IMG/VR virus record: IMGVR_UViG_3300013936_000025
Span: 4,048-68,047 of that record
DNA length: 64,000 nt
Direction: 5' to 3' (one strand)
Source of the DNA: a virus
Taxonomy: Duplodnaviria > Caudoviricetes
The notes under the pieces are model-generated. The model ran no database searches and had not been told where the DNA came from. It saw only the letters and a list, made by a program, of their open reading frames with translations. Both the position numbers and the translations under genes were made by a program. Of this stretch, positions 3,230 through 19,697 are shown piece by piece; the stretch's first letter is position 1, and each line of letters begins with the position of its first letter.

Positions 3230-4636
3230 ATGGCAAATAAGAATAAAAGATATACAAGAGAGTTTAGTTATACTAGACCTATTATGTATCAGGGGGAAGC
3301 ATATCCCTCTGCTGATTCTGTGATAACTGATGAGCTTGGCAACAAGACCAATGGAACTATCTTTACAGATGCCTATGGTCAGTACTATACAAAGGATAAA
3401 GAAAACAATATCTTTCCAGTGATGCCTGTGGAGAACCTTGACGAAGTTACTATAACTGCCAAGAATAAGAGAGAACCTTTGTTGTTTAATCATTACTTGA
3501 CAGTGAATGATAACACAAGAGTGAACAACCTACCTCATAGAGAATATAATACACATCTCAAGGCTAATACTGAGAGAGGTGCTAGAGAACATGCTTTATG
3601 GGATAAAGAGCATCCTAACCTATCAGCATGGAGGGATGCAGCTACAGCAGTACCACTTGCAGTTGCTGCTACCCCTATAGTGTTAGGTACTGGGCAAGGA
3701 CTCCTTGGCACTACAGCAGGTCAAGCAGTTAAACATGGACTGACAGCTCTTATGGAGAATCCTTATGTAGTAGGTGCTAATGATGTACTTGGATTGGGGT
3801 TTGCAGGAAAGGGTGCTTATGATGTGACACAAGGTAAGTTTACTCCTGAGACTGCTATGGAATTAACAGGCTTCTATCCTTTTGGTAAGTCTCTTACAGG
3901 ATTGACTAAATCTAGGAAGATAAATAAAGGAATGGAAAATATTCTTGCAAACAGCAATAACTCTAACCCTTTTATCAATGAAGATATAGTATTCAACTAT
4001 AAACAAGACCCTTTAGAGATGCATTATGCAAGAGCTAAGGTTAAAGGTTATAGTCCTAATAGAATAGAATATTATAACTTAACAGAGGATTCTAATAAGA
4101 ATATGCAACTTATGCAAGAGTTAGCACCAATGTATGATGCTACTCCAGAAGAACTATTATCAGCATATAGAAATCATTTAGCTACAAGAAGTGGTCATGC
4201 AGCAACTTTAATGGATAAAAGAAATACTATAATTCATGATGGAATGCTTCCTAAGTCTCATGCTAGTGCTATTCTCTCACATGAAGTAGATCATGCTTTA
4301 CACATACCAGATGAACCTGTACCTGATGGAACATTTTTCCCCAGGATTAAGCTAGGTGGAGATTATTTTACAAGAAATAATAATACAGAGGTAGCAGCAA
4401 GAGGAAGTCAATTACATGATTACTTTGGACATACAGGGTCAGAACCTATTACAGCGGAAGAATTGAAATATGCCAAAGAACATTATGTCAAAGACACAGG
4501 TATTAATAACAATATGAGTAATATGTTGTGGAGTATTAATGATTATGATGCTTTAGCTAAGTGGATGACAAAGTATTCTACTGGCATTGTACCATTAGGA
4601 ATTATAGGTAATAATCAATTAAGCAATAATGAATAG
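3230..4636 (+). CDS. Modular protein with C-terminal HExxH zincin metallopeptidase (polymorphic-toxin-like); likely start ATG3230
   Basis: LDEVTITA linker, Ala/Gly-rich hydrophobic middle, C-terminal SHEVDHALH with downstream TEVAAR. Confidence 0.7.
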   Translation: MANKNKRYTREFSYTRPIMYQGEAYPSADSVITDELGNKTNGTIFTDAYGQYYTKDKENNIFPVMPVENLDEVTITAKNKREPLLFNHYLTVNDNTRVNNLPHREYNTHLKANTERGAREHALWDKEHPNLSAWRDAATAVPLAVAATPIVLGTGQGLLGTTAGQAVKHGLTALMENPYVVGANDVLGLGFAGKGAYDVTQGKFTPETAMELTGFYPFGKSLTGLTKSRKINKGMENILANSNNSNPFINEDIVFNYKQDPLEMHYARAKVKGYSPNRIEYYNLTEDSNKNMQLMQELAPMYDATPEELLSAYRNHLATRSGHAATLMDKRNTIIHDGMLPKSHASAILSHEVDHALHIPDEPVPDGTFFPRIKLGGDYFTRNNNTEVAARGSQLHDYFGHTGSEPITAEELKYAKEHYVKDTGINNNMSNMLWSINDYDALAKWMTKYSTGIVPLGIIGNNQLSNNE

Positions 4637-6630: not shown

Positions 6631-6774
6631 ATGGATAAGGAAACATTGAAAGGTATTCTAGACCCATACTACCCTACTCTTCAAGAGATGATGTGCAATC
6701 TAAAGGAACATACCTTAGGAGGAGATGTAATCAAGGTAAACACATCAGCAGGAACAATAACAATTAGATTATGA
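6631..6774 (+). CDS. Small hypothetical protein, 47 aa (not in ORF track)
   Basis: ATG6631..TGA6774, with an ATGA overlap on the dnaB start. Confidence 0.5.
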   Translation: MDKETLKGILDPYYPTLQEMMCNLKEHTLGGDVIKVNTSAGTITIRL

Positions 6775-7401
6775 GTTTAGTTCAAAGAGTATTACAAAAT
6801 GCAGAGGAAAGGAGGAAAAGGATTCTTAGTGGAAAAGTTAATTGCATACCATCTCCTTTCAAGACCTTTAGATATGACTTTCCGGGAGTGGAATTAGGTA
6901 CCTATTATTTAGTGTCGGGAAGTGCTAAAGCTTCTAAGTCTAAGATAACAAATTTCTTATTCCTCTATAATACAATCTTATATGCTTATGAACATCCAGA
7001 GTTAGTTAAGGTAAAGATATTCTATGCTCTTCTTGAAGAGAAAGCTGAAAATATTACAGGCAAGTTTATTTGCTATTTACTATATAAGCTATCAGGAGGT
7101 AAAATAAGGATAGACATTAAGACATTTAAATCTGTAGATGAGGGAAGAATACTTTCTGCTGATATACTTGAGTTATTAAATACTCTTGAATATCAATCTA
7201 TACTTAATTTTTATGAAGAACATGTAGATTTTATTGTGGATAGGAATCCAACAGGTATCTATCATACATTGGAGAAGTATGCAGAAGCCAATGGAACTAT
7301 TCATAGGAAGAAAGTAAAAGGGTATGATAAAGAAGTGTTTGACTATTATGAACCAAATAATCCAGAAGAATATGTAATGTGCATTATAGACCATATAGGG
7401 T
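6771..7401 (+). CDS. dnaB: DnaB-like replicative helicase, exon 1 (spliced product about 365 aa)
   Basis: Walker A-like SGSAKASKS and Walker B IIDH. Joining nt 7401 to 8602 gives in-frame IIDHIGLISTERGMDL. Confidence 0.85.
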
Positions 7402-7505
7402 TAGAAATTAGCCGTCCTTAACAGTAATGTTTAGGATTATTAAGGAGCAAAGTCGGTGGATTTTAAGGGTTTTATTAAGTACTTTAGTTTCTGTTTCAAT
7501 TAATG

Positions 7506-7513
7506 TAACTTTG
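7506..7513 (+). promoter_or_regulatory. TAnnTTTG promoter box for the intronic endonuclease (TAACTTTG)
   Basis: Exact motif ending 25 nt upstream of ATG7539. Confidence 0.6.
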
Positions 7514-7538
7514 TACCATAATTATAAACTATATAAGT

Positions 7539-8429
7539 ATGGAAGATAAAAGTTACATGGAGTATAAAATATGCGCTCCTAGAGACCCAAGGTTTATTCA
7601 AATGTTAGTAGATGAATACAACAATACTAATATCTCTCTAAAAGATTTAAGTAAGAAGTATCATACTGATGCTTATTATGAATTTAAAATTCATAATATT
7701 CCAATTAGACCTAAGGGTGTGCAGAGAAGTTTAACTAGAATAAATTGTATAACCTTAAATTGGAACTTTGAGTCTATAGAAACAGAAGAACAAGCATATA
7801 TTACAGGACTATTATTTGCAGATGGATATACTAGTCATATGCAAATAGGTCTAAAATTAAAAAGAAGTGATAAAACATTATTGAAAAGAGTAAAAAACTA
7901 TTTTTCTCCAAATATAACTATTCAAGAACAATCAAATGGTTTTGGTTTTGTAATATCTTCAGATATTGCTTGTAAAAATTTAAAGCAACTTGGAAAAGTT
8001 AAAACTGGAGAACCTATACATATTCCTCAAATGAAGGATTCTTTAATTAGACATTTCATTAGAGGTTACTTTGACGGTGATGGTACAATATTTGTCTGTA
8101 ATAATAATAATGTAAAATTTTTCAAGTCCAATATTTGTTGTGTTACTACAAGTATTCTAGAAGAATTTCAGCAACAGTTACAAGCCAATGACATTTGTTG
8201 TACTATCAATAAAGAAAATAGGAAAGGTAAAACAATGAGAGTTCCAGAAGGAACTTGTATTTGTACTTTTGATATGTATAGATTATTCATTCGCAAGAAA
8301 GACTCAATAAAAAAGTTTTATCATTATCTTTATGATAATTGCAATATATACATGGAAAGAAAAAGAAAAGTATTTGAAGACAACAAAGAGCTGTTCAATT
8401 ATATAAGACCTAAGAAAATACCGAGCTAA
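7539..8429 (+). CDS. Intron-encoded LAGLIDADG homing endonuclease
   Basis: Two motifs, AYITGLLFADG and FIRGYFDGDG; the last codons overlap the intron Q element. Confidence 0.9.
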   Translation: MEDKSYMEYKICAPRDPRFIQMLVDEYNNTNISLKDLSKKYHTDAYYEFKIHNIPIRPKGVQRSLTRINCITLNWNFESIETEEQAYITGLLFADGYTSHMQIGLKLKRSDKTLLKRVKNYFSPNITIQEQSNGFGFVISSDIACKNLKQLGKVKTGEPIHIPQMKDSLIRHFIRGYFDGDGTIFVCNNNNVKFFKSNICCVTTSILEEFQQQLQANDICCTINKENRKGKTMRVPEGTCICTFDMYRLFIRKKDSIKKFYHYLYDNCNIYMERKRKVFEDNKELFNYIRPKKIPS

Positions 8430-8601
8430 CTTAGTGGATTGCGAAAGGCTACTAAGTAGTGTAGAGCATAGGAGATGAATAAATATAATTCTCCCAAGAG
8501 TGTTCCTCACCCTTTTTTACCTAAGGAGGGTGAATATATATGCCGACCTTATGGGAAACCATAAGAACTATAGGATAAAAAGCCTGTAGGATAACAAAGT
8601 G

Positions 8602-9068
8602 TAATTAGCACAGAACGTGGTATGGACTTAAGAAACTCTATCAAAAAATTATCCGAGTATCTTAAGATAGTTCGTAATAAATTCAACTATATACCAGTAG
8701 TAGTACAACAGCAAAATTCTGAGAACAACTCACTTGAGGCATTTAAGGCAAATAAAATTCGTCCCTCACAGAAAGGGTTACTGGATTGCCAAGACACCTC
8801 ACGCGACGCAGACCTATTTTTAGGTATAACTTCACCGTATGCTTGGGAATTAAAAGATTACTTGCATTATGACATAACCAAATTAAAAAGCTATGCAAAA
8901 TTCTTGGAGGTTGTACAAGGAAGAGATGGAGAAAGTAATGCCATCCTTGGTATGTATTTTGATGGAGCGACAGGATATTATGCACCACTTCCAAAGTATG
9001 ACAATCTAGAGCAACTTAACAAGGTATATCAGTTAATCAAAAAGAATCAAGAGAATACATCTAAGTAG
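8602..9068 (+). CDS. dnaB: DnaB-like helicase, exon 2
   Basis: VVVQQQ, CQDTSRDADLFLG and VVQGRDG match C-terminal DnaB motifs; in frame after splicing. Confidence 0.85.
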
Positions 9069-14192: not shown

Positions 14193-15428
14193 ATGCAATA
14201 CACAATCAATCAACTATACCAGCATATTTACGAAAAGGTAGATAACATCTATGATATATTCAAGGGATTCTTTGGCGAAAATAATGTAGATTTACAGTAC
14301 ACAATTGCTAGAAATACAGTAATATCATACATTATAGCTGAACTACAGCGTAAGAATGTAGACCTAGACCTTAAAGACCAGGAATATAATACAAGCTATG
14401 ATGTTCCTGATAGTGCCCTAGAGTCTCTGGAAGCCTTCTTTGCTCTGAATAAATCAATTATCTATGTATGGTGGAACAGGGTTAAAATTACCAATGAGAA
14501 CAATAAGTCTGTCACTATCCAAGACCTTTATGCAAAGATTGAGGTGCAAATGAATGGCAGAATTCCTTATGAGAATCATGGATTTCTTCTTAATAGAGCT
14601 ACTTATAGCAAAGAACAGTTCCTAAGTGACTATATGCATAGTCATATCTGTGAAATACCTAAAGACGATTTTACTAAATTTGAGAAGCCATGTCTAGGTA
14701 CTGGACCTATCAATGGTACCATTATGACATTAAAGAATGATTATGATGAGGTTACTTGGATGCTATTCTGTGATGAGTTATCCTTGTATGTTACAGTAGA
14801 ATCTTTAACAGGAAGACCTTATAAATATCTAGAACATATAGGATACAGAGAAAGGCTTTATAGATACAATGGCTTTGATTTTACCAATAATGCGTATGCT
14901 AAAAAATTCTATATATGTTTCTCTAAGGAGGACTTTATAAAATTTATCAAGTATTATCTACAGAAAGGGCATTTATCTATTACCTATAAGAATGGCAAGT
15001 ACTCATGTGGTATGCCATATTATGAATATATCATAGATATTAGTAATGCATTCATTGATTATTACAATGCTTATCTTATAGGTAAAGAAAATTCAGATAG
15101 ACTGTTTAACTGTGGTATACTTAACTATGTATTATTTGTCAATGGTAAATTCTATAGGAATGAAAATACTACTTGTAGAAATCTAGATAGATATAGGAAT
15201 AACTTCGTTCTTAACTTTAAAGGCAAGGATATATACACAACCATTACAGAGGATGCAGAAAGCGAGAGTACTTTAACTACTGTCATAGATAATGATATAG
15301 CTATGTATATCCTGAAATCAATTCTTAGAATAATTAATTTTAGATACAATAAAAATGAACATAAATTCACAACAGCAGGAATCAATCAAGGAACTTCCAC
15401 AGTTAAAGAAAGGATCAGCTACCTATAA
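14193..15428 (+). CDS. Putative prokaryotic E2 (UBC-like) conjugating enzyme, 411 aa
   Basis: YMHSHI...KPCLGTGPI (His149/His151, Cys167) resembles the E2 HPN/HxH...CL signature; operon context supports it. Confidence 0.62.
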   Translation: MQYTINQLYQHIYEKVDNIYDIFKGFFGENNVDLQYTIARNTVISYIIAELQRKNVDLDLKDQEYNTSYDVPDSALESLEAFFALNKSIIYVWWNRVKITNENNKSVTIQDLYAKIEVQMNGRIPYENHGFLLNRATYSKEQFLSDYMHSHICEIPKDDFTKFEKPCLGTGPINGTIMTLKNDYDEVTWMLFCDELSLYVTVESLTGRPYKYLEHIGYRERLYRYNGFDFTNNAYAKKFYICFSKEDFIKFIKYYLQKGHLSITYKNGKYSCGMPYYEYIIDISNAFIDYYNAYLIGKENSDRLFNCGILNYVLFVNGKFYRNENTTCRNLDRYRNNFVLNFKGKDIYTTITEDAESESTLTTVIDNDIAMYILKSILRIINFRYNKNEHKFTTAGINQGTSTVKERISYL

Positions 15429-15684
15429 GCTTATTGTTCCTGAGAAGGTAGAAGAGAAGATTAGGTATCTACTTAGGAAGTTCCCATCTACAGAATGGTC
15501 TGGAGTATTATTCACCAAGCATACAGGTACTTTTGAGAACAATGACTTGGTTATTACTTGTGAAGACCTATATCCTATGGACTTAGGTACATCAGGTTGG
15601 ACAGAGTTCAAGATGAATGAGGATGTATCAGCTTATATGGCTGAAAACATAGAGCTGTTTGATTGTGATGTAGCATTAGTGCAT
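15355..15684 (+). CDS. JAB/MPN+ (JAMM) metalloprotease, exon 1 (spliced product 427 aa)
   Basis: STEWSGVLF (Glu47). Splicing gives VH|SHHNLGAFLSSQD, an exact HxH-x7-S-x2-D JAMM motif. Confidence 0.88.
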
Positions 15685-15831
15685 TAACTTGTGAGTGCAC
15701 ATTAAATTGGGTGAATTGCTGGAAACTGGTTGACAAACCACAATCAGCAGCCAAGCTTAGTGGATTAAAATCCCTTTGAAGGTTCAACGACTAACAAATA
15801 TTTATTGTAATTAACAAGCCTAGAGTTTGAT

Positions 15832-16443
15832 ATGAATAAAGTAGAAAAAGCAACATTAATTGGTTTAGTACTAGGAGATGGTCATATAGACTGTTCTAAG
15901 AATAAAGGTATATATACAAATTCTGCAATAACATTTATTCATTGTAAAAAACAAAAAGAATATTTAGAATGGAAAGCAGATTTGTTATATAAAATATTTG
16001 GAGGTAATAAACCAAAAGTTATTGAGTTTACTAATAATGGGTATAATGGAGTAAAAATGATGAAATCTAATAAATATTTTAGAATACTCCATAAATATCT
16101 ATATAAAAATGGCAGAAAAACCATACCATTAAAAGCATTAAATCGTTTAACACCATTAGCATTAGCAATATGGTGGATGGATGATGGGTGTTTGTTTGCT
16201 AAAAAAAGAAATAATAAAATACATGCTTGGGAACTTTATCTTAATACTTATTTATCAGATGAAGAAAATCAAATAATTATTAATTATTTTCAGCAAAGAT
16301 GGAATATATTATGGAAGATAAACCATGATAAAGGACGTAGTAGATTAAGATGTTCTACTAAAGAAGGTAGAAAATTTCTTAATATAATACGTCCTATAGT
16401 AAACAAAATACAATGTATGCAATATAAAGTTATAAATATTTGA
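15832..16443 (+). CDS. Intron-encoded LAGLIDADG endonuclease (sense, P8 region)
   Basis: LIGLVLGDG and LAIWWMDDG motifs. Confidence 0.9.
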   Translation: MNKVEKATLIGLVLGDGHIDCSKNKGIYTNSAITFIHCKKQKEYLEWKADLLYKIFGGNKPKVIEFTNNGYNGVKMMKSNKYFRILHKYLYKNGRKTIPLKALNRLTPLALAIWWMDDGCLFAKKRNNKIHAWELYLNTYLSDEENQIIINYFQQRWNILWKINHDKGRSRLRCSTKEGRKFLNIIRPIVNKIQCMQYKVINI

Positions 16444-16465
16444 CACGAGTGCCCAACCCTACAGA

Positions 16466-17530
16466 TTATTTCGTAGGTGATGATATAGTCTGAACTTGTT
16501 TATATTTGTCATAGGAAGGATGATTTACTCTTTGTAAAAATCTATCATGCTTCCTTTTATAATAAAATGGAAGATGCTCATAGCATTGAAATAATCTATA
16601 AGTATCTTTTTTACGTGCAAAAGATAAAGAAGGTATGGAATCATATTGATGTATATGCTTCTTATCTATCTTTAGATGTTCACATATCCCTTCAAGAATA
16701 GCATGGGTACCTCTAATATTAATATACATTGTATTATCTTGACATAAGACTCCTGAGGATTTTCGTACAGAATCTTGTATATGAATAGAACCGTCTGCAT
16801 CAAATAAGCCCATGATGAAAGCATCTCTAAATTGCTTTGGAATATTTGGGATAATGTTAGGTAGTGTAAAACTCTTTCTAGGAGTAATACCATACTTCAT
16901 AATATCATGTACAATCTGAGGGGTACTAAAAGCTAATCTAGCATGATGAATTATCTTAGATTTATCAAAACCTGATGGTCTTCTTATTTCTAATATTTTA
17001 TGTGTGTTACCAATTTCTGATTTTATGAACTCCAATATAGCCTTATCTTCCCACTTAACAGTGATAGTTAAGGTTATTGTTGGTCCATACTTTGCAGGAA
17101 CTAGAGCACCATCAGCAGCAATGAAACCTAAGATATAGGCTTTAGCATAGGTATCTATAGTTTCAAAGTAATGAATATTCCCAGGATCAGGTCTAAACTT
17201 TAATCCTAGACTACGGATATAGCTAGATACTGTGACAGCATTTAAATTCAGAATCTTAGAGATTTGGGTAGGAGTATTCCCTTCATGTAATAATATACCA
17301 ATTTGTTGCTTTACTTCATCTGTAATAACACAATTTGGATGAGCATTTATAAATACTCCTTCTCGTCTTAATAGCTTCCTAATACACTGAGCATCATTAT
17401 CAATATTAGAAGAATTAAGGAGTCTAGCTATATTAGCACAAGTATTACCTTGTTTATAGCTTTCAAGAATAAAATCCTTTTGGTTTTCAAATTTAAATCT
17501 ACTCATAATTTTATTATTTATTATGAACAA
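16466..17530 (-). CDS. Second intron-encoded LAGLIDADG endonuclease (antisense, P9 region; start probably ATG at 17506)
   Basis: AYILGFIAADG and FIMGLFDADG motifs with N-terminal HTH-like repeats; the 3' end runs antisense through the intron S element. Confidence 0.9.
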   Translation of the reverse strand: MFIINNKIMSRFKFENQKDFILESYKQGNTCANIARLLNSSNIDNDAQCIRKLLRREGVFINAHPNCVITDEVKQQIGILLHEGNTPTQISKILNLNAVTVSSYIRSLGLKFRPDPGNIHYFETIDTYAKAYILGFIAADGALVPAKYGPTITLTITVKWEDKAILEFIKSEIGNTHKILEIRRPSGFDKSKIIHHARLAFSTPQIVHDIMKYGITPRKSFTLPNIIPNIPKQFRDAFIMGLFDADGSIHIQDSVRKSSGVLCQDNTMYINIRGTHAILEGICEHLKIDKKHIHQYDSIPSLSFARKKDTYRLFQCYEHLPFYYKRKHDRFLQRVNHPSYDKYKQVQTISSPTK

Positions 17531-17643
17531 AAATACAGAAAAATCATGAATAAGTGAACATTCTAAAATATACGCTAATGCAAACTAATTTTATTATTAA
17601 GAACAAGATTCCTAGGATAAAGAGCCTAGGAGATAACATAACG

Positions 17644-18597
17644 TCACATCACAATCTCGGAGCCTTTCTGAGCAGTCAAGACATTAAGATGGTACAGCAA
17701 GAAGGCAATGATACCAACTGCTTTGTATCTCTTGTTGTTGATACTCCAGGAAACTATGTAGCTATTGTAACTAGAAAAGTACAAACCAAGTCTGAGGTTA
17801 CAATCAAGAACTTGGGAACATCTTATGAGTTCTTTGGAGAAGGAAGCAAGACTATTACCAAAGAGAATTCTGAGATTACAAAGGTAATTGATAAGGAATT
17901 TATTGAATACTTTGACCTTGAGGTAGAAAGGCATGAGGTTATTAACAATCTTGCTTATCTTGATGACAGATTTGATGAAATAGAGAAGAAGAAAGCTTCA
18001 ATAAAGAACAATAATCTTGGACTACCTTCTTATAGTAGCAAAGAAAATAATCAACCTAAGTTCCAATTGGGTGATGGAAACTATGATGATTTCAGAAGCT
18101 ATCTACATAGAGATAACAATAAGGAAACCACAGGTAAGGAATTAGATTTATTTAATCAAGAACAGGATGAGTTATCTAAAGAAGACTATGATAAGTTAAA
18201 TGAGGTTGCTAGCTCCAACTGGAAGCCAGACCCTAAGAAAGTTCATAGAGCTGTATGCAATATGGTCACATGCAACCTCATCATTAATCCTGATAAGCTC
18301 GACTTGAAGCAATGGATTCATAAGCACATGGTGAATGTATATGAGAGAATTTTCAATGATACACAATCCAATACTTATGAGAATGTGAATGCCTTTGCAG
18401 AATGGAGAGATTTCATCACTCAATTCACAATGGATTACTTTGATGTATCTGATGCTCCAGATGAACTGCTAGATAATTGGGATGTCCTCATGAGCACAAT
18501 AGCCATAGCCATCTATGATGAGCTTAGTAAATATGCTAATGAGAATATATACATTCAATCTTATCAAGATGCTATTGAACAATATATAGTACAATAA
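17644..18597 (+). CDS. JAB/JAMM protease, exon 2 with long C-terminal extension
   Basis: Begins SHHNLGAFLSSQD...FVSLVVD; in frame with exon 1 after splicing. Confidence 0.88.
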   Translation, partial: SHHNLGAFLSSQDIKMVQQEGNDTNCFVSLVVDTPGNYVAIVTRKVQTKSEVTIKNLGTSYEFFGEGSKTITKENSEITKVIDKEFIEYFDLEVERHEVINNLAYLDDRFDEIEKKKASIKNNNLGLPSYSSKENNQPKFQLGDGNYDDFRSYLHRDNNKETTGKELDLFNQEQDELSKEDYDKLNEVASSNWKPDPKKVHRAVCNMVTCNLIINPDKLDLKQWIHKHMVNVYERIFNDTQSNTYENVNAFAEWRDFITQFTMDYFDVSDAPDELLDNWDVLMSTIAIAIYDELSKYANENIYIQSYQDAIEQYIVQ

Positions 18598-18599
18598 TT

Positions 18600-19697
18600 A
18601 TGGAAACAAATACAATAGATAATATTCTTAATGACTTGGGAATGAGTACTACTCCTACTACACCTCCTACAGAAGCTATTTCTACAGAGAATGTTTCCAG
18701 TACTTTCTCTAATGAAGACATTAATGATATTCTAGAAGATAATGGCTTTTCAGAAGAAGGAATACAAGATGCTGTATTTGAAGAAGAAGATTCTGAGGAA
18801 GAAAGGGAGAATACCCAAGATTTAAGTAATACTGCCCAAGATGATGAAATGGAACATCAGCTTTATCAACAAGCTTTGGAAGAAGTAGACTCTGAAGTAA
18901 ATGGTGATTCTGAGGATGCTACTCCTACAGAGGGACATGAAATCTCTAAGAATGATAAGATTCCACTGAATTCTCCTACCCTACTTATAGATGAATCTAC
19001 ATCTAGGTTCTCAGGTGCTGAATGGTTCAATGAGATACAGAAAGCTAGAATCATAGTAGCTGGATGTGGAGGTATCGGCAGCAACTTAATATTCCAACTA
19101 GCAAGAATGGTACCAGCTAATATTACCATCTATGATGATGATGCGGTAGAGATGGTTAATATGGCAGGGCAGTTATATAGCTATAGTGATATGGGAAAAG
19201 CAAAGGTTGATGCCATAGCTGATATGATAACTTCTTATTCCTCAATGCGACAAGTTAATGCTATTAAGGAAAAGTTTACCAGTCTTACTGAGGCAGGAGA
19301 TATTATGATGTGTGGCTTTGATAATATGTCTGCAAGAAAGACGTTCTTTAACTCTTGGTATGAGCATATTAAGAATAAAAGTAAGGAAGAAAGGACTAGG
19401 TGCTTACTGCTTGATGGTCGTCTTAGCATGGATACCTTACAGATATTCTGTATAAGAGGTGATGATACTTATAACATTAATAGGTATCAGAGTGATTTTC
19501 TTTTCTCAGACTATCTAGCGGATGCTACAGTATGTTCCATGAAACAGACTACTTATCTAGCCTGTATGATTGGCTCATTGATGGTAAATCTCTTTACTAA
19601 TTTTGTAGCTAATTCCTTAAATCCAGTCATTCCTTATGACTTACCTTTCTTTACAGAGTATGATGCACAGAATATGATATTTAAGACAGAAAGCTAA
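18600..19697 (+). CDS. E1-like (ThiF/MoeB/HesA) adenylating enzyme with acidic N-terminal extension
   Basis: IIVAGCGGIGS, YDDDAVEMVNMAGQ, KAKV, CGFDNMSAR, LDGR; candidate catalytic Cys312 (TVCSMKQ). Confidence 0.9.
   Translation: METNTIDNILNDLGMSTTPTTPPTEAISTENVSSTFSNEDINDILEDNGFSEEGIQDAVFEEEDSEEERENTQDLSNTAQDDEMEHQLYQQALEEVDSEVNGDSEDATPTEGHEISKNDKIPLNSPTLLIDESTSRFSGAEWFNEIQKARIIVAGCGGIGSNLIFQLARMVPANITIYDDDAVEMVNMAGQLYSYSDMGKAKVDAIADMITSYSSMRQVNAIKEKFTSLTEAGDIMMCGFDNMSARKTFFNSWYEHIKNKSKEERTRCLLLDGRLSMDTLQIFCIRGDDTYNINRYQSDFLFSDYLADATVCSMKQTTYLACMIGSLMVNLFTNFVANSLNPVIPYDLPFFTEYDAQNMIFKTES

Follow-up and report, generated by a model that had tools for sequence, protein, structure and literature searches.

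A predicted group I intron with two convergent LAGLIDADG genes in the JAMM protease gene of a crAss-like phage

The interrupted JAB gene and its intron

The stretch analyzed here (hereafter the window) comprises 64,000 nucleotides (nt), positions 4,048 to 68,047, of a 68-kb crAss-like phage record in IMG/VR (IMGVR_UViG_3300013936_000025). A gene for a protein of the JAMM (JAB) protease type is interrupted in it between the codons of the first and second zinc-ligand histidines (His110 | Ser111-His112; the bar marks the insertion site) by a predicted group I intron. The intron carries two LAGLIDADG homing endonuclease genes, HEG1 in the sense and HEG2 in the antisense orientation, which converge on the 3' part of the ribozyme core, with stop codons 22 nt apart. 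The features are as follows (loci designated L with a number are relatives described below, as is the twin contig).

15355–15684, plus strand: exon 1 of the JAMM protease gene, 110 codons ending ...ALVH; colinear with the N-terminus of uninterrupted homologs, contains the invariant EWSG Glu.
15685–17643, plus strand: predicted group I intron, 1959 nt, with an in-frame TAA first and G last; P1, P10 and the terminal G assigned from sequence; RF00028 41.9 bits (homologous introns 52.9–76.4 bits).
15690–15700, plus strand: internal guide sequence, pairing with exon 2 through 15690–15694 (P10) and with exon 1 through 15695–15700 (P1); compensatory P1 and P10 changes in relatives with other exon sequences.
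15707–15793, plus strand: 5' core with the P3 5' strand, P4, P5, P6 and the P7 5' strand (R element, 15782–15793); from the Rfam alignment, with covariation in P3 and P5.
15795–15803, plus strand: 5' strand (CAAAUAUUU) of a 9-bp stem predicted to close the HEG1 loop, with its partner at 16434–16442; from sequence, standing where relatives have P7.1/P7.2.
15832–16443, plus strand: HEG1, LAGLIDADG_2 homing endonuclease gene, 203 amino acids (aa); PF03161 117.5 bits over the full length; intact in the twin contig and missing from all other JAB-site introns.
16451–16500, plus strand: 3' core with the P3 3' strand (16451–16456), P8 (16458–16477), the S element and P7 3' strand (16479–16495) and the P9 5' strand (16495–16500); homologous to the crAssphage dUTPase intron, with covariation in P3, P8 and P9.
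16466–17506, minus strand: HEG2, LAGLIDADG_1 and helix-turn-helix (HTH) homing endonuclease gene, 346 aa from ATG 17506 to a stop in the P8 loop; PF00961 and PF14528; intact orthologs in six further introns, forming a monophyletic antisense clade.
17528–17535, minus strand: TATTTTTG, a match to TAnnTTTG 21 nt upstream of the HEG2 ATG; the motif stands 19–23 nt upstream in six of seven orthologous introns.
17602–17631, plus strand: P9 3' strand (17602–17607) and conserved terminal hairpin (17610–17631); compensatory P9 changes in L009 and L042, covariation in 6 of 7 hairpin pairs.
17644–18597, plus strand: exon 2 of the JAMM protease gene, starting SHHNLGAFLSSQD; aligned to homologs, JAMM fold confirmed on an ortholog.

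Exon 1 ends with GTG CAT at 15684, TAA follows directly, and the JAB frame reopens at 17644. Both junctions are set by pairings with the guide sequence: P1 consists of GUGCAU (15679–15684) and GUGCAC (15695–15700), 6 bp with the splice-site wobble U15684.G15695, and P10 of UCACA (17644–17648) and UGUGA (15690–15694), 5 bp. Two P1 pairs show compensatory changes among the relatives, and P10 is retuned in L041, L042 and Flavobacterium phage Fpv1, where the exon differs. The 3'-terminal base of the intron is G17643. The product of exon joining, ...ALVH|SHHNLGAFLSSQD, aligned without gaps to uninterrupted homologs from three crAss-like phages (...LIHSHNNMxTFFSGTD), and joining completes the motif E...HxHx7Sx2D (EWSG, H110-S-H112, x7, S, xx, D).

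In the core, the R element reads GTTCAACGACTA and the S element GATGATATAGTCTGAAC, and the two P9 strands are CTTGTT (16495–16500) and AACAAG (17602–17607). Rfam searches over the whole window, at the gathering threshold and at E 0.001, reported no intron; only a local search with RF00028 detected one (E 9e-9), in its 5' half (P1–P7). Seven relatives without the sense open reading frame (ORF) scored above the 50-bit gathering score of this family. The window copy stays below it because HEG1 separates P7 from P3', not for want of a core. In the relatives, the interval between P7 and P3' holds a P7.1/P7.2 module of 42–55 nt, the hallmark of IA introns, with P7.1 as CACU/AGUG or CUCU/AGAG and P7.2 as CUGC/GCAG or CUAC/GUAG. 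In the window, the conserved P7.1/P7.2 sequence is wholly absent; instead, the 612-nt HEG1 ORF, with the 9-bp stem around it, separates the 5' strand of P7 from the 3' strand of P3. Judged by these features, 15685–17643 is an IA-like group I intron of the P7.1/P7.2 type.

Covariation in the proposed helices was tested across eight introns, a non-redundant set from which L045 and L011, as near-duplicates, and the much-diverged L063 were excluded. The HEG1 loop was deleted from the window row only, and the 3' partner of each helix, slid by 1–2 columns, served as a control. Standard pairs occupied 420 of the 424 cells of the proposed helices (99%), compared with 32–39% in the slid controls, and compensatory double changes were found in 20 of 53 pairs, compared with 1–3 pairs in the controls. 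The covarying long-range helices include P3, which spans HEG1, P9, which spans HEG2, and P10. P9, closing the 1.1-kb HEG2 loop, occurs as CUUGUU/AACAAG, CUUGUC/GACAAG and CUUACU/AGUAAG. All nine aligned introns start with TAA.

These results bear on the possibility that the locus holds two elements, with a free-standing antisense endonuclease cassette beside a short intron that ends near 16520, within a JAB gene that is truly split. Such an arrangement would agree with an Rfam match limited to the 5' part, and one relative, L067, seems to have two tandem introns in a JAB-like gene. However, no exon sequence is present between 15684 and 17644. Downstream of HEG2 lie the 3' strand of P9, the hairpin and the G that end the intron, and the P10 partner, all of which covary with upstream partners. 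Moreover, the 300-nt intron of L009 joins exactly those parts. We regard a two-element origin as extremely improbable.

The host protein was examined through its orthologs. Residues E54, H117, S118, H119, S127 and D130 (ortholog numbering) are invariant across 32 JAB orthologs. The Prok-JAB family PF14464 gave 20.4 and 14 bits on two orthologs, under its cut-off of 25, and a profile search of PDB sequences with the JAB protein returned JAMM proteins only (JAMM1, E 0.009; Rpn11, E 0.023; also CSN5). An AlphaFold2 model of the N-domain, made for one ortholog and not for the joined exons of the window, had a predicted local distance difference test score (pLDDT) of 82.5, and its top Foldseek matches were Rpn11, CSN5 and Citrobacter BubCD (probability 1.0, E from 1.8e-7). 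The modelled fold supports the assignment of the host gene as a JAMM protease.

The antisense endonuclease HEG2

The minus-strand ORF spans 16466–17530, and comparison with orthologs suggests ATG 17506 as the likely start of HEG2. Placed between both P9 strands, the ORF lies inside the predicted excised RNA. The plus strand opposite to it holds ORFs of 44 aa at most. The HEG2 protein has two LAGLIDADG motifs and, at its N-terminus, HTH repeats; it matches PF00961 with 24.4 bits (cut-off 23.1), PF14528 with 23.4 bits (cut-off 22.5) and HTH families. Compared with its orthologs, the window protein has ~56 additional N-terminal residues (17506–17200), which resemble a second HTH repeat.

The 3' end of HEG2 shares its sequence with the ribozyme. 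The last 10 codons (QVQTISSPTK) and the stop are the reverse complement of 16466–16498, a segment that runs from the loop and 3' strand of P8 through J8/7 and P7' into the beginning of P9. Because the HEG2 protein of L042 ends short of the ribozyme core, the tail ...KQVQTISS most likely reflects a constraint of the ribozyme and not a need of the enzyme. A first-pass annotation, made by a model from the letters of the window alone, had set the junctions at H110|S111-H112 from P1 and P10, had placed a sense endonuclease between the R and S elements and a second, unrelated one antisense in P9 (CTTGTT/AACAAG), and had read the QTISSPTK codons as the reverse complement of the S element. The anatomy given here agrees with it on all these points: the junctions hold on the sequence and in the gap-free spliced alignment, the sense gene was found at its predicted place with a PF03161 match, P9 covaries, and the HEG1 and HEG2 proteins resemble each other in the motif only (BLASTP E 0.46).

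HEG2 was intact in all seven introns compared. Purifying selection on the predicted protein is shown by ratios of nonsynonymous to synonymous substitution rates (dN/dS) of 0.19–0.35 in pairwise comparisons, at dS of ~0.7–1.7, and no ortholog departs from the motifs GFIAADG and GxFDxDGS or from their acidic residues. The motif TAnnTTTG, which corresponds to the -7 element in primary-sigma promoters of Bacteroidetes, is conserved upstream of HEG2 in six of the seven introns despite diverged surroundings; its background in the window is ~0.7 per kb, two strands combined. It constitutes a phylogenetic footprint and marks a candidate, not a proven, promoter. A terminator-like hairpin on the minus strand (17631–17610) was also considered and was rejected, as it is the complement of the terminal hairpin of the intron and its frequency equals that in shuffles.

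The conservation of HEG2 is difficult to reconcile with the idea of the minus-strand ORF as a passenger, dead or silent, that was inserted by chance the wrong way round and is in decay, with HEG1 as the only functional gene. It is true that an antisense gene cannot use the transcript of the host gene and that the N-terminal HTH duplication of the window HEG2 is odd and unseen in the orthologs. However, a passenger would not be expected to stay intact in all seven diverged introns with such dN/dS ratios, to keep both LAGLIDADG motifs and their acidic residues invariant or to retain the upstream motif, and the intron carrying HEG2 has reached at least three insertion sites. We consider a decaying passenger very unlikely.

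A quick maximum-likelihood run of IQ-TREE with 64 family members placed all the antisense endonucleases in one clade (Shimodaira–Hasegawa-like approximate likelihood ratio test, SH-aLRT, 90; with its free-standing sister, 97), and the remoter homologs are either sense-oriented beside a core or free-standing. Taken together with the intact orthologs, the tree supports HEG2 as a long-standing, conserved partner of the intron lineage. The closest outgroup of the antisense clade, L065 (IMGVR_UViG_3300033514_000140), is a free-standing endonuclease gene between two genes of opposite orientation, with no ribozyme core nearby, a layout that possibly pictures the state before capture by an intron.

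Relatives of the intron and the arrival of HEG1

Relatives were found in IMG/VR with a sequence pattern that combined the P7.2-P3' and S blocks they have in common (46 loci) and with a HEG2 profile (80 further). A twin contig, 99% identical over 7.9 kb, has the same two-ORF intron and is the sole other two-gene copy found. The other informative relatives are as follows.

L016/L045, L020, L034, L046, L026, L061 and L063: antisense gene only, normal P7.1/P7.2, at the JAB H|SH site; HEG2 59–61% identical (L063 50%).
L009/L011: 300-nt intron at the JAB H|SH site without an endonuclease; the P9 loop retains ~60 nt of the HEG2 3' end.
L041 and L042: ribozyme and antisense gene (46–50% identical) at DYMH|SH (ATGCAT|TCTCAT) in the gene that directly precedes JAB, with JAB itself uninterrupted.
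L066 and L067: JAB-like genes of other phages, with introns that are more diverged; the antisense gene ends at the S element.
L222 (Flavobacterium phage Fpv1, NC_031914, 65369–67661): JAB exon 1 (gp56), antisense endonuclease (gp55), JAB exon 2 (gp54), then ThiF; homologous core by eye.

The antisense-only introns in JAB represent at least seven lineages, and the 300-nt intron of L009/L011 is, by the HEG2 remnant in it, a deletion derivative. A copy with the sense gene alone was not found among these relatives. In L041 and L042 the guide sequence is altered such that P1 and P10 persist. The P1/P10 rules did not settle the intron boundaries of L066 and L067, and these two loci support only a wider reach of the antisense layout. 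The JAB-like gene of L067 (IMGVR_UViG_3300048672_001051, a 230-kb contig) seemingly has two introns in tandem, separated by a few codons, of which the first has an antisense HEG2-like gene and the second a sense ORF of 213 aa and R and S elements of its own.

In Fpv1, P1 is GGUCAU/GUGACC and P10 is AUACA/UGUAU, and the insertion lies 6 nt upstream (VGH|IHSH). Rfam reported nothing on this locus, though the core is plainly homologous by eye. The same split JAB arrangement was found by tblastn in 21 further records of F. psychrophilum phages (22 records of cultured phages including that of Fpv1). In the Fpv1 annotation, gp56 and gp54 are hypothetical proteins, gp55 is an endonuclease and no intron is given. 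The family thus occupies three insertion sites, two of them 6 nt apart in the active-site codons of JAB and one, also H|SH, in the neighbouring gene. The move to the neighbouring gene could have occurred through a shifted specificity of the endonuclease or through reverse splicing, the 6-nt P1 target AUGCAU being common to both sites.

The series of relatives supports the view that HEG1 arrived later in the window copy and its twin, where it would have replaced the P7.1/P7.2 module. Distant LAGLIDADG_2 genes occupy the same position, from P7 to P3', in related introns of other genes (L027, L029, L039 and L047), and a single-protein search for HEG1 relatives returned no close donor and no JAB intron with HEG1 only. 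Two routes of entry are conceivable: recombination with a related intron across the near-invariant flanks (...GGTTCAACGACTAAC and GACACGAGTGCCC...), or cleavage of P7.1/P7.2 DNA (P7.2) by HEG1 itself, followed by repair. Both routes fit. Once in place, HEG1 is presumably translated from the pre-mRNA or from the excised intron. The first-pass annotation had proposed a double invasion and a search of relatives for versions with zero, one and two endonucleases. The separate acquisition of two genes stands, given that relatives have none or the antisense gene only, but the antisense gene is no second invader, and the newcomer is the sense gene. All three versions exist, except that every one-gene form found in JAB has the antisense gene.

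A comparison of the window with its twin contig showed a step in divergence (15360–15582 versus 15583–17643). Over the 330 positions of JAB exon 1 the two contigs have 14 differences (4.2%), every one upstream of 15583, and the last 100 nt of exon 1 and the entire intron differ at 0–0.6%. The step could be a co-conversion tract of recent homing, although the numbers are small.

In accordance with a further expectation of the first-pass annotation, the JAB gene is conserved and widespread, with 45 phage records and 382 IMG/VR stretches containing it. The gene was intron-free in all of the best 80 of these 382 IMG/VR matches; the intron therefore occupies a small minority. This distribution matters for another explanation of the locus, in which the antisense HEG2 transcript, complementary to P9, P7' and P8 (and to HEG1 in the window), would pair with the pre-mRNA or collide with its transcription and lower splicing, so that it times or limits the JAMM protease and the neighbouring E1 system. 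The convergence of HEG2 with the host gene and its overlap with the catalytic core agree with such a role, as do the conserved promoter-like motif, which suggests that HEG2 is transcribed, and the stability of the antisense layout over long divergence. However, the same layout persists in L041 and L042, where the intron sits in a different gene, and must therefore be a property of the mobile element and not of JAB regulation. The antisense gene was lost without replacement in L009 and L011, and hence is dispensable in L009. As the layout travels with the intron, was lost in these derivatives and is absent from most JAB genes, any effect on JAB would be incidental to the element and would not amount to conserved control. 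None of the present evidence supports the gating of JAB, and so of the Ubl system, that the first-pass annotation had inferred, and we consider regulation of this kind unlikely. Likewise, we see little prospect that the HEG2 mRNA is a natural antisense regulator, with the firing of a host-type promoter inside the intron switching splicing and, with it, the JAMM protease of an E1/JAB module.

The surroundings of the intron are those of related phages. The gene order of the window (primase, two unknown genes, JAB, ThiF/E1) is identical in Kehishuvirus, Mahlunavirus and other Crassvirales. The downstream neighbour of JAB is:

18600–19697, plus strand: ThiF/E1-like gene, conserved neighbour of JAB; PF00899 73.7 bits, order kept in L001–L003.

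The gene directly upstream of JAB (14193–15428) matched no Pfam family. Its DYMH|SH site near codon 149, filled in L041 and L042, is empty in the window. A helicase-like gene at 6771–9068 is apparently split as well, into 6771–7421 (ending ...IIDHIGLEISRP) and 8622–9068. The insert begins with TAA, contains a sense LAGLIDADG gene (7539–8429) and ends with a hairpin and tail (GGATAAAAAGCC...GGATAACAAAGTG) closely resembling the 3' end of the JAB intron; this insert, which Rfam missed, is probably another group I intron, more diverged than that of JAB.

Proposed history and comparison with known systems

We consider it probable that the element is a mobile IA-type group I intron that brought its own antisense endonuclease gene, HEG2, and was later joined by HEG1. 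The intron family circulates in crAss-like and related phages of Bacteroidota. The ribozyme is predicted to splice itself out of the pre-mRNA, rebuilding the JAMM active site, and the in-frame TAA after the 5' splice site would halt ribosomes on unspliced RNA. HEG2 would most likely be transcribed from its own host-type promoter within the P9 loop, its frame continuing through the complement of P9, P7' and P8 to the stop in the P8 loop, and the enzyme made from this antisense transcript would drive homing into the H|SH codons. The whole would be a selfish element whose ribozyme removes it from the RNA and in which HEG1 is a later lodger.

Several observations weigh against this history. The RF00028 score of the window copy is lower than the gathering score of Rfam, and the 9-bp stem closing the HEG1 loop has no covariation support. 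The Pfam scores of HEG2 barely exceed their cut-offs, and the closest relative of HEG1 found outside the twin is only 37% identical. The promoter motif is short and its carriers are related sequences; L041 has only a near match to it, and the -33 element is weak in the window.

The locus provides a natural series for the assembly of endonuclease genes and ribozymes, with no gene, the antisense gene alone or two convergent genes, and demonstrates that an endonuclease frame can share sequence with a catalytic core on the other strand. A practical consequence is that JAB genes of such phages are mis-annotated as two hypothetical proteins and an endonuclease, as in Fpv1. Splicing, the antisense promoter and homing are open to testing in the cultured Flavobacterium phages.

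The closest published case is the capsid-gene intron of mycobacteriophage LittleE (Pope et al. 2013, PMC3706429). It is a spliced phage intron, probably of group I, and its LAGLIDADG-like ORF, transcribed from the bottom strand against the host gene, has the orientation of HEG2 (PMC3706429). The LittleE intron differs in having one ORF only and in residing in the capsid gene of an actinophage; the paper, with which the JAB intron was compared by description, reports no core overlap, promoter or series of relatives (PMC3706429). The JAB introns show this backwards layout, published once for a mycobacteriophage, to be a stable, selected arrangement in phages of Bacteroidota.

Antisense endonuclease genes are well established in nuclear group I introns of ribosomal DNA, where they encode His-Cys box enzymes (I-DirII of Didymium iridis and the L2066 introns; PMC3073962, PMC9548176). 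In these introns, too, the antisense gene lies inside the intron and is expressed there from its own promoter (PMC3073962, PMC9548176), whereas for the JAB intron the promoter is a candidate only. The ribosomal DNA introns differ in being eukaryotic and nuclear and in having a Pol II promoter, a spliceosomal intron, poly(A), a His-Cys box enzyme and one gene per intron.

The introns of T4 td (I-TevI), SPO1 (I-HmuI) and the crAssphage dUTPase gene belong to the same ribozyme class (IA), and HEG1 follows their layout of a sense gene in a peripheral loop. They carry a single sense ORF, whereas the JAB intron adds an antisense ORF that fills P9 and overlaps the catalytic core. The crAssphage dUTPase intron (BK010471, annotated with an HNH gene) is a homolog of the JAB intron, with 78.6% identity over 95 nt; it has a P7.2-P3'-P8-P7' block in common with the JAB-intron family and scores 65.9 bits with RF00028. 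Fungal mitochondrial group I introns can contain more than one non-overlapping endonuclease gene, and the parts of that account considered here describe no opposite-strand gene (PMC11835236). Unlike these mitochondrial introns, the JAB intron is found in a phage and its two genes converge on the 3' core of the ribozyme.

The antisense layout is not mentioned in a 2014 review of bacterial group I introns or in the survey of crAss-like phages by Yutin et al. LittleE already provides a published example of a spliced phage intron with an antisense LAGLIDADG ORF. What is new is the convergent two-gene state, the coding frame that overlaps the catalytic core, the series with zero, one and two endonucleases, the ectopic site and the unannotated presence of the intron in cultured phages.

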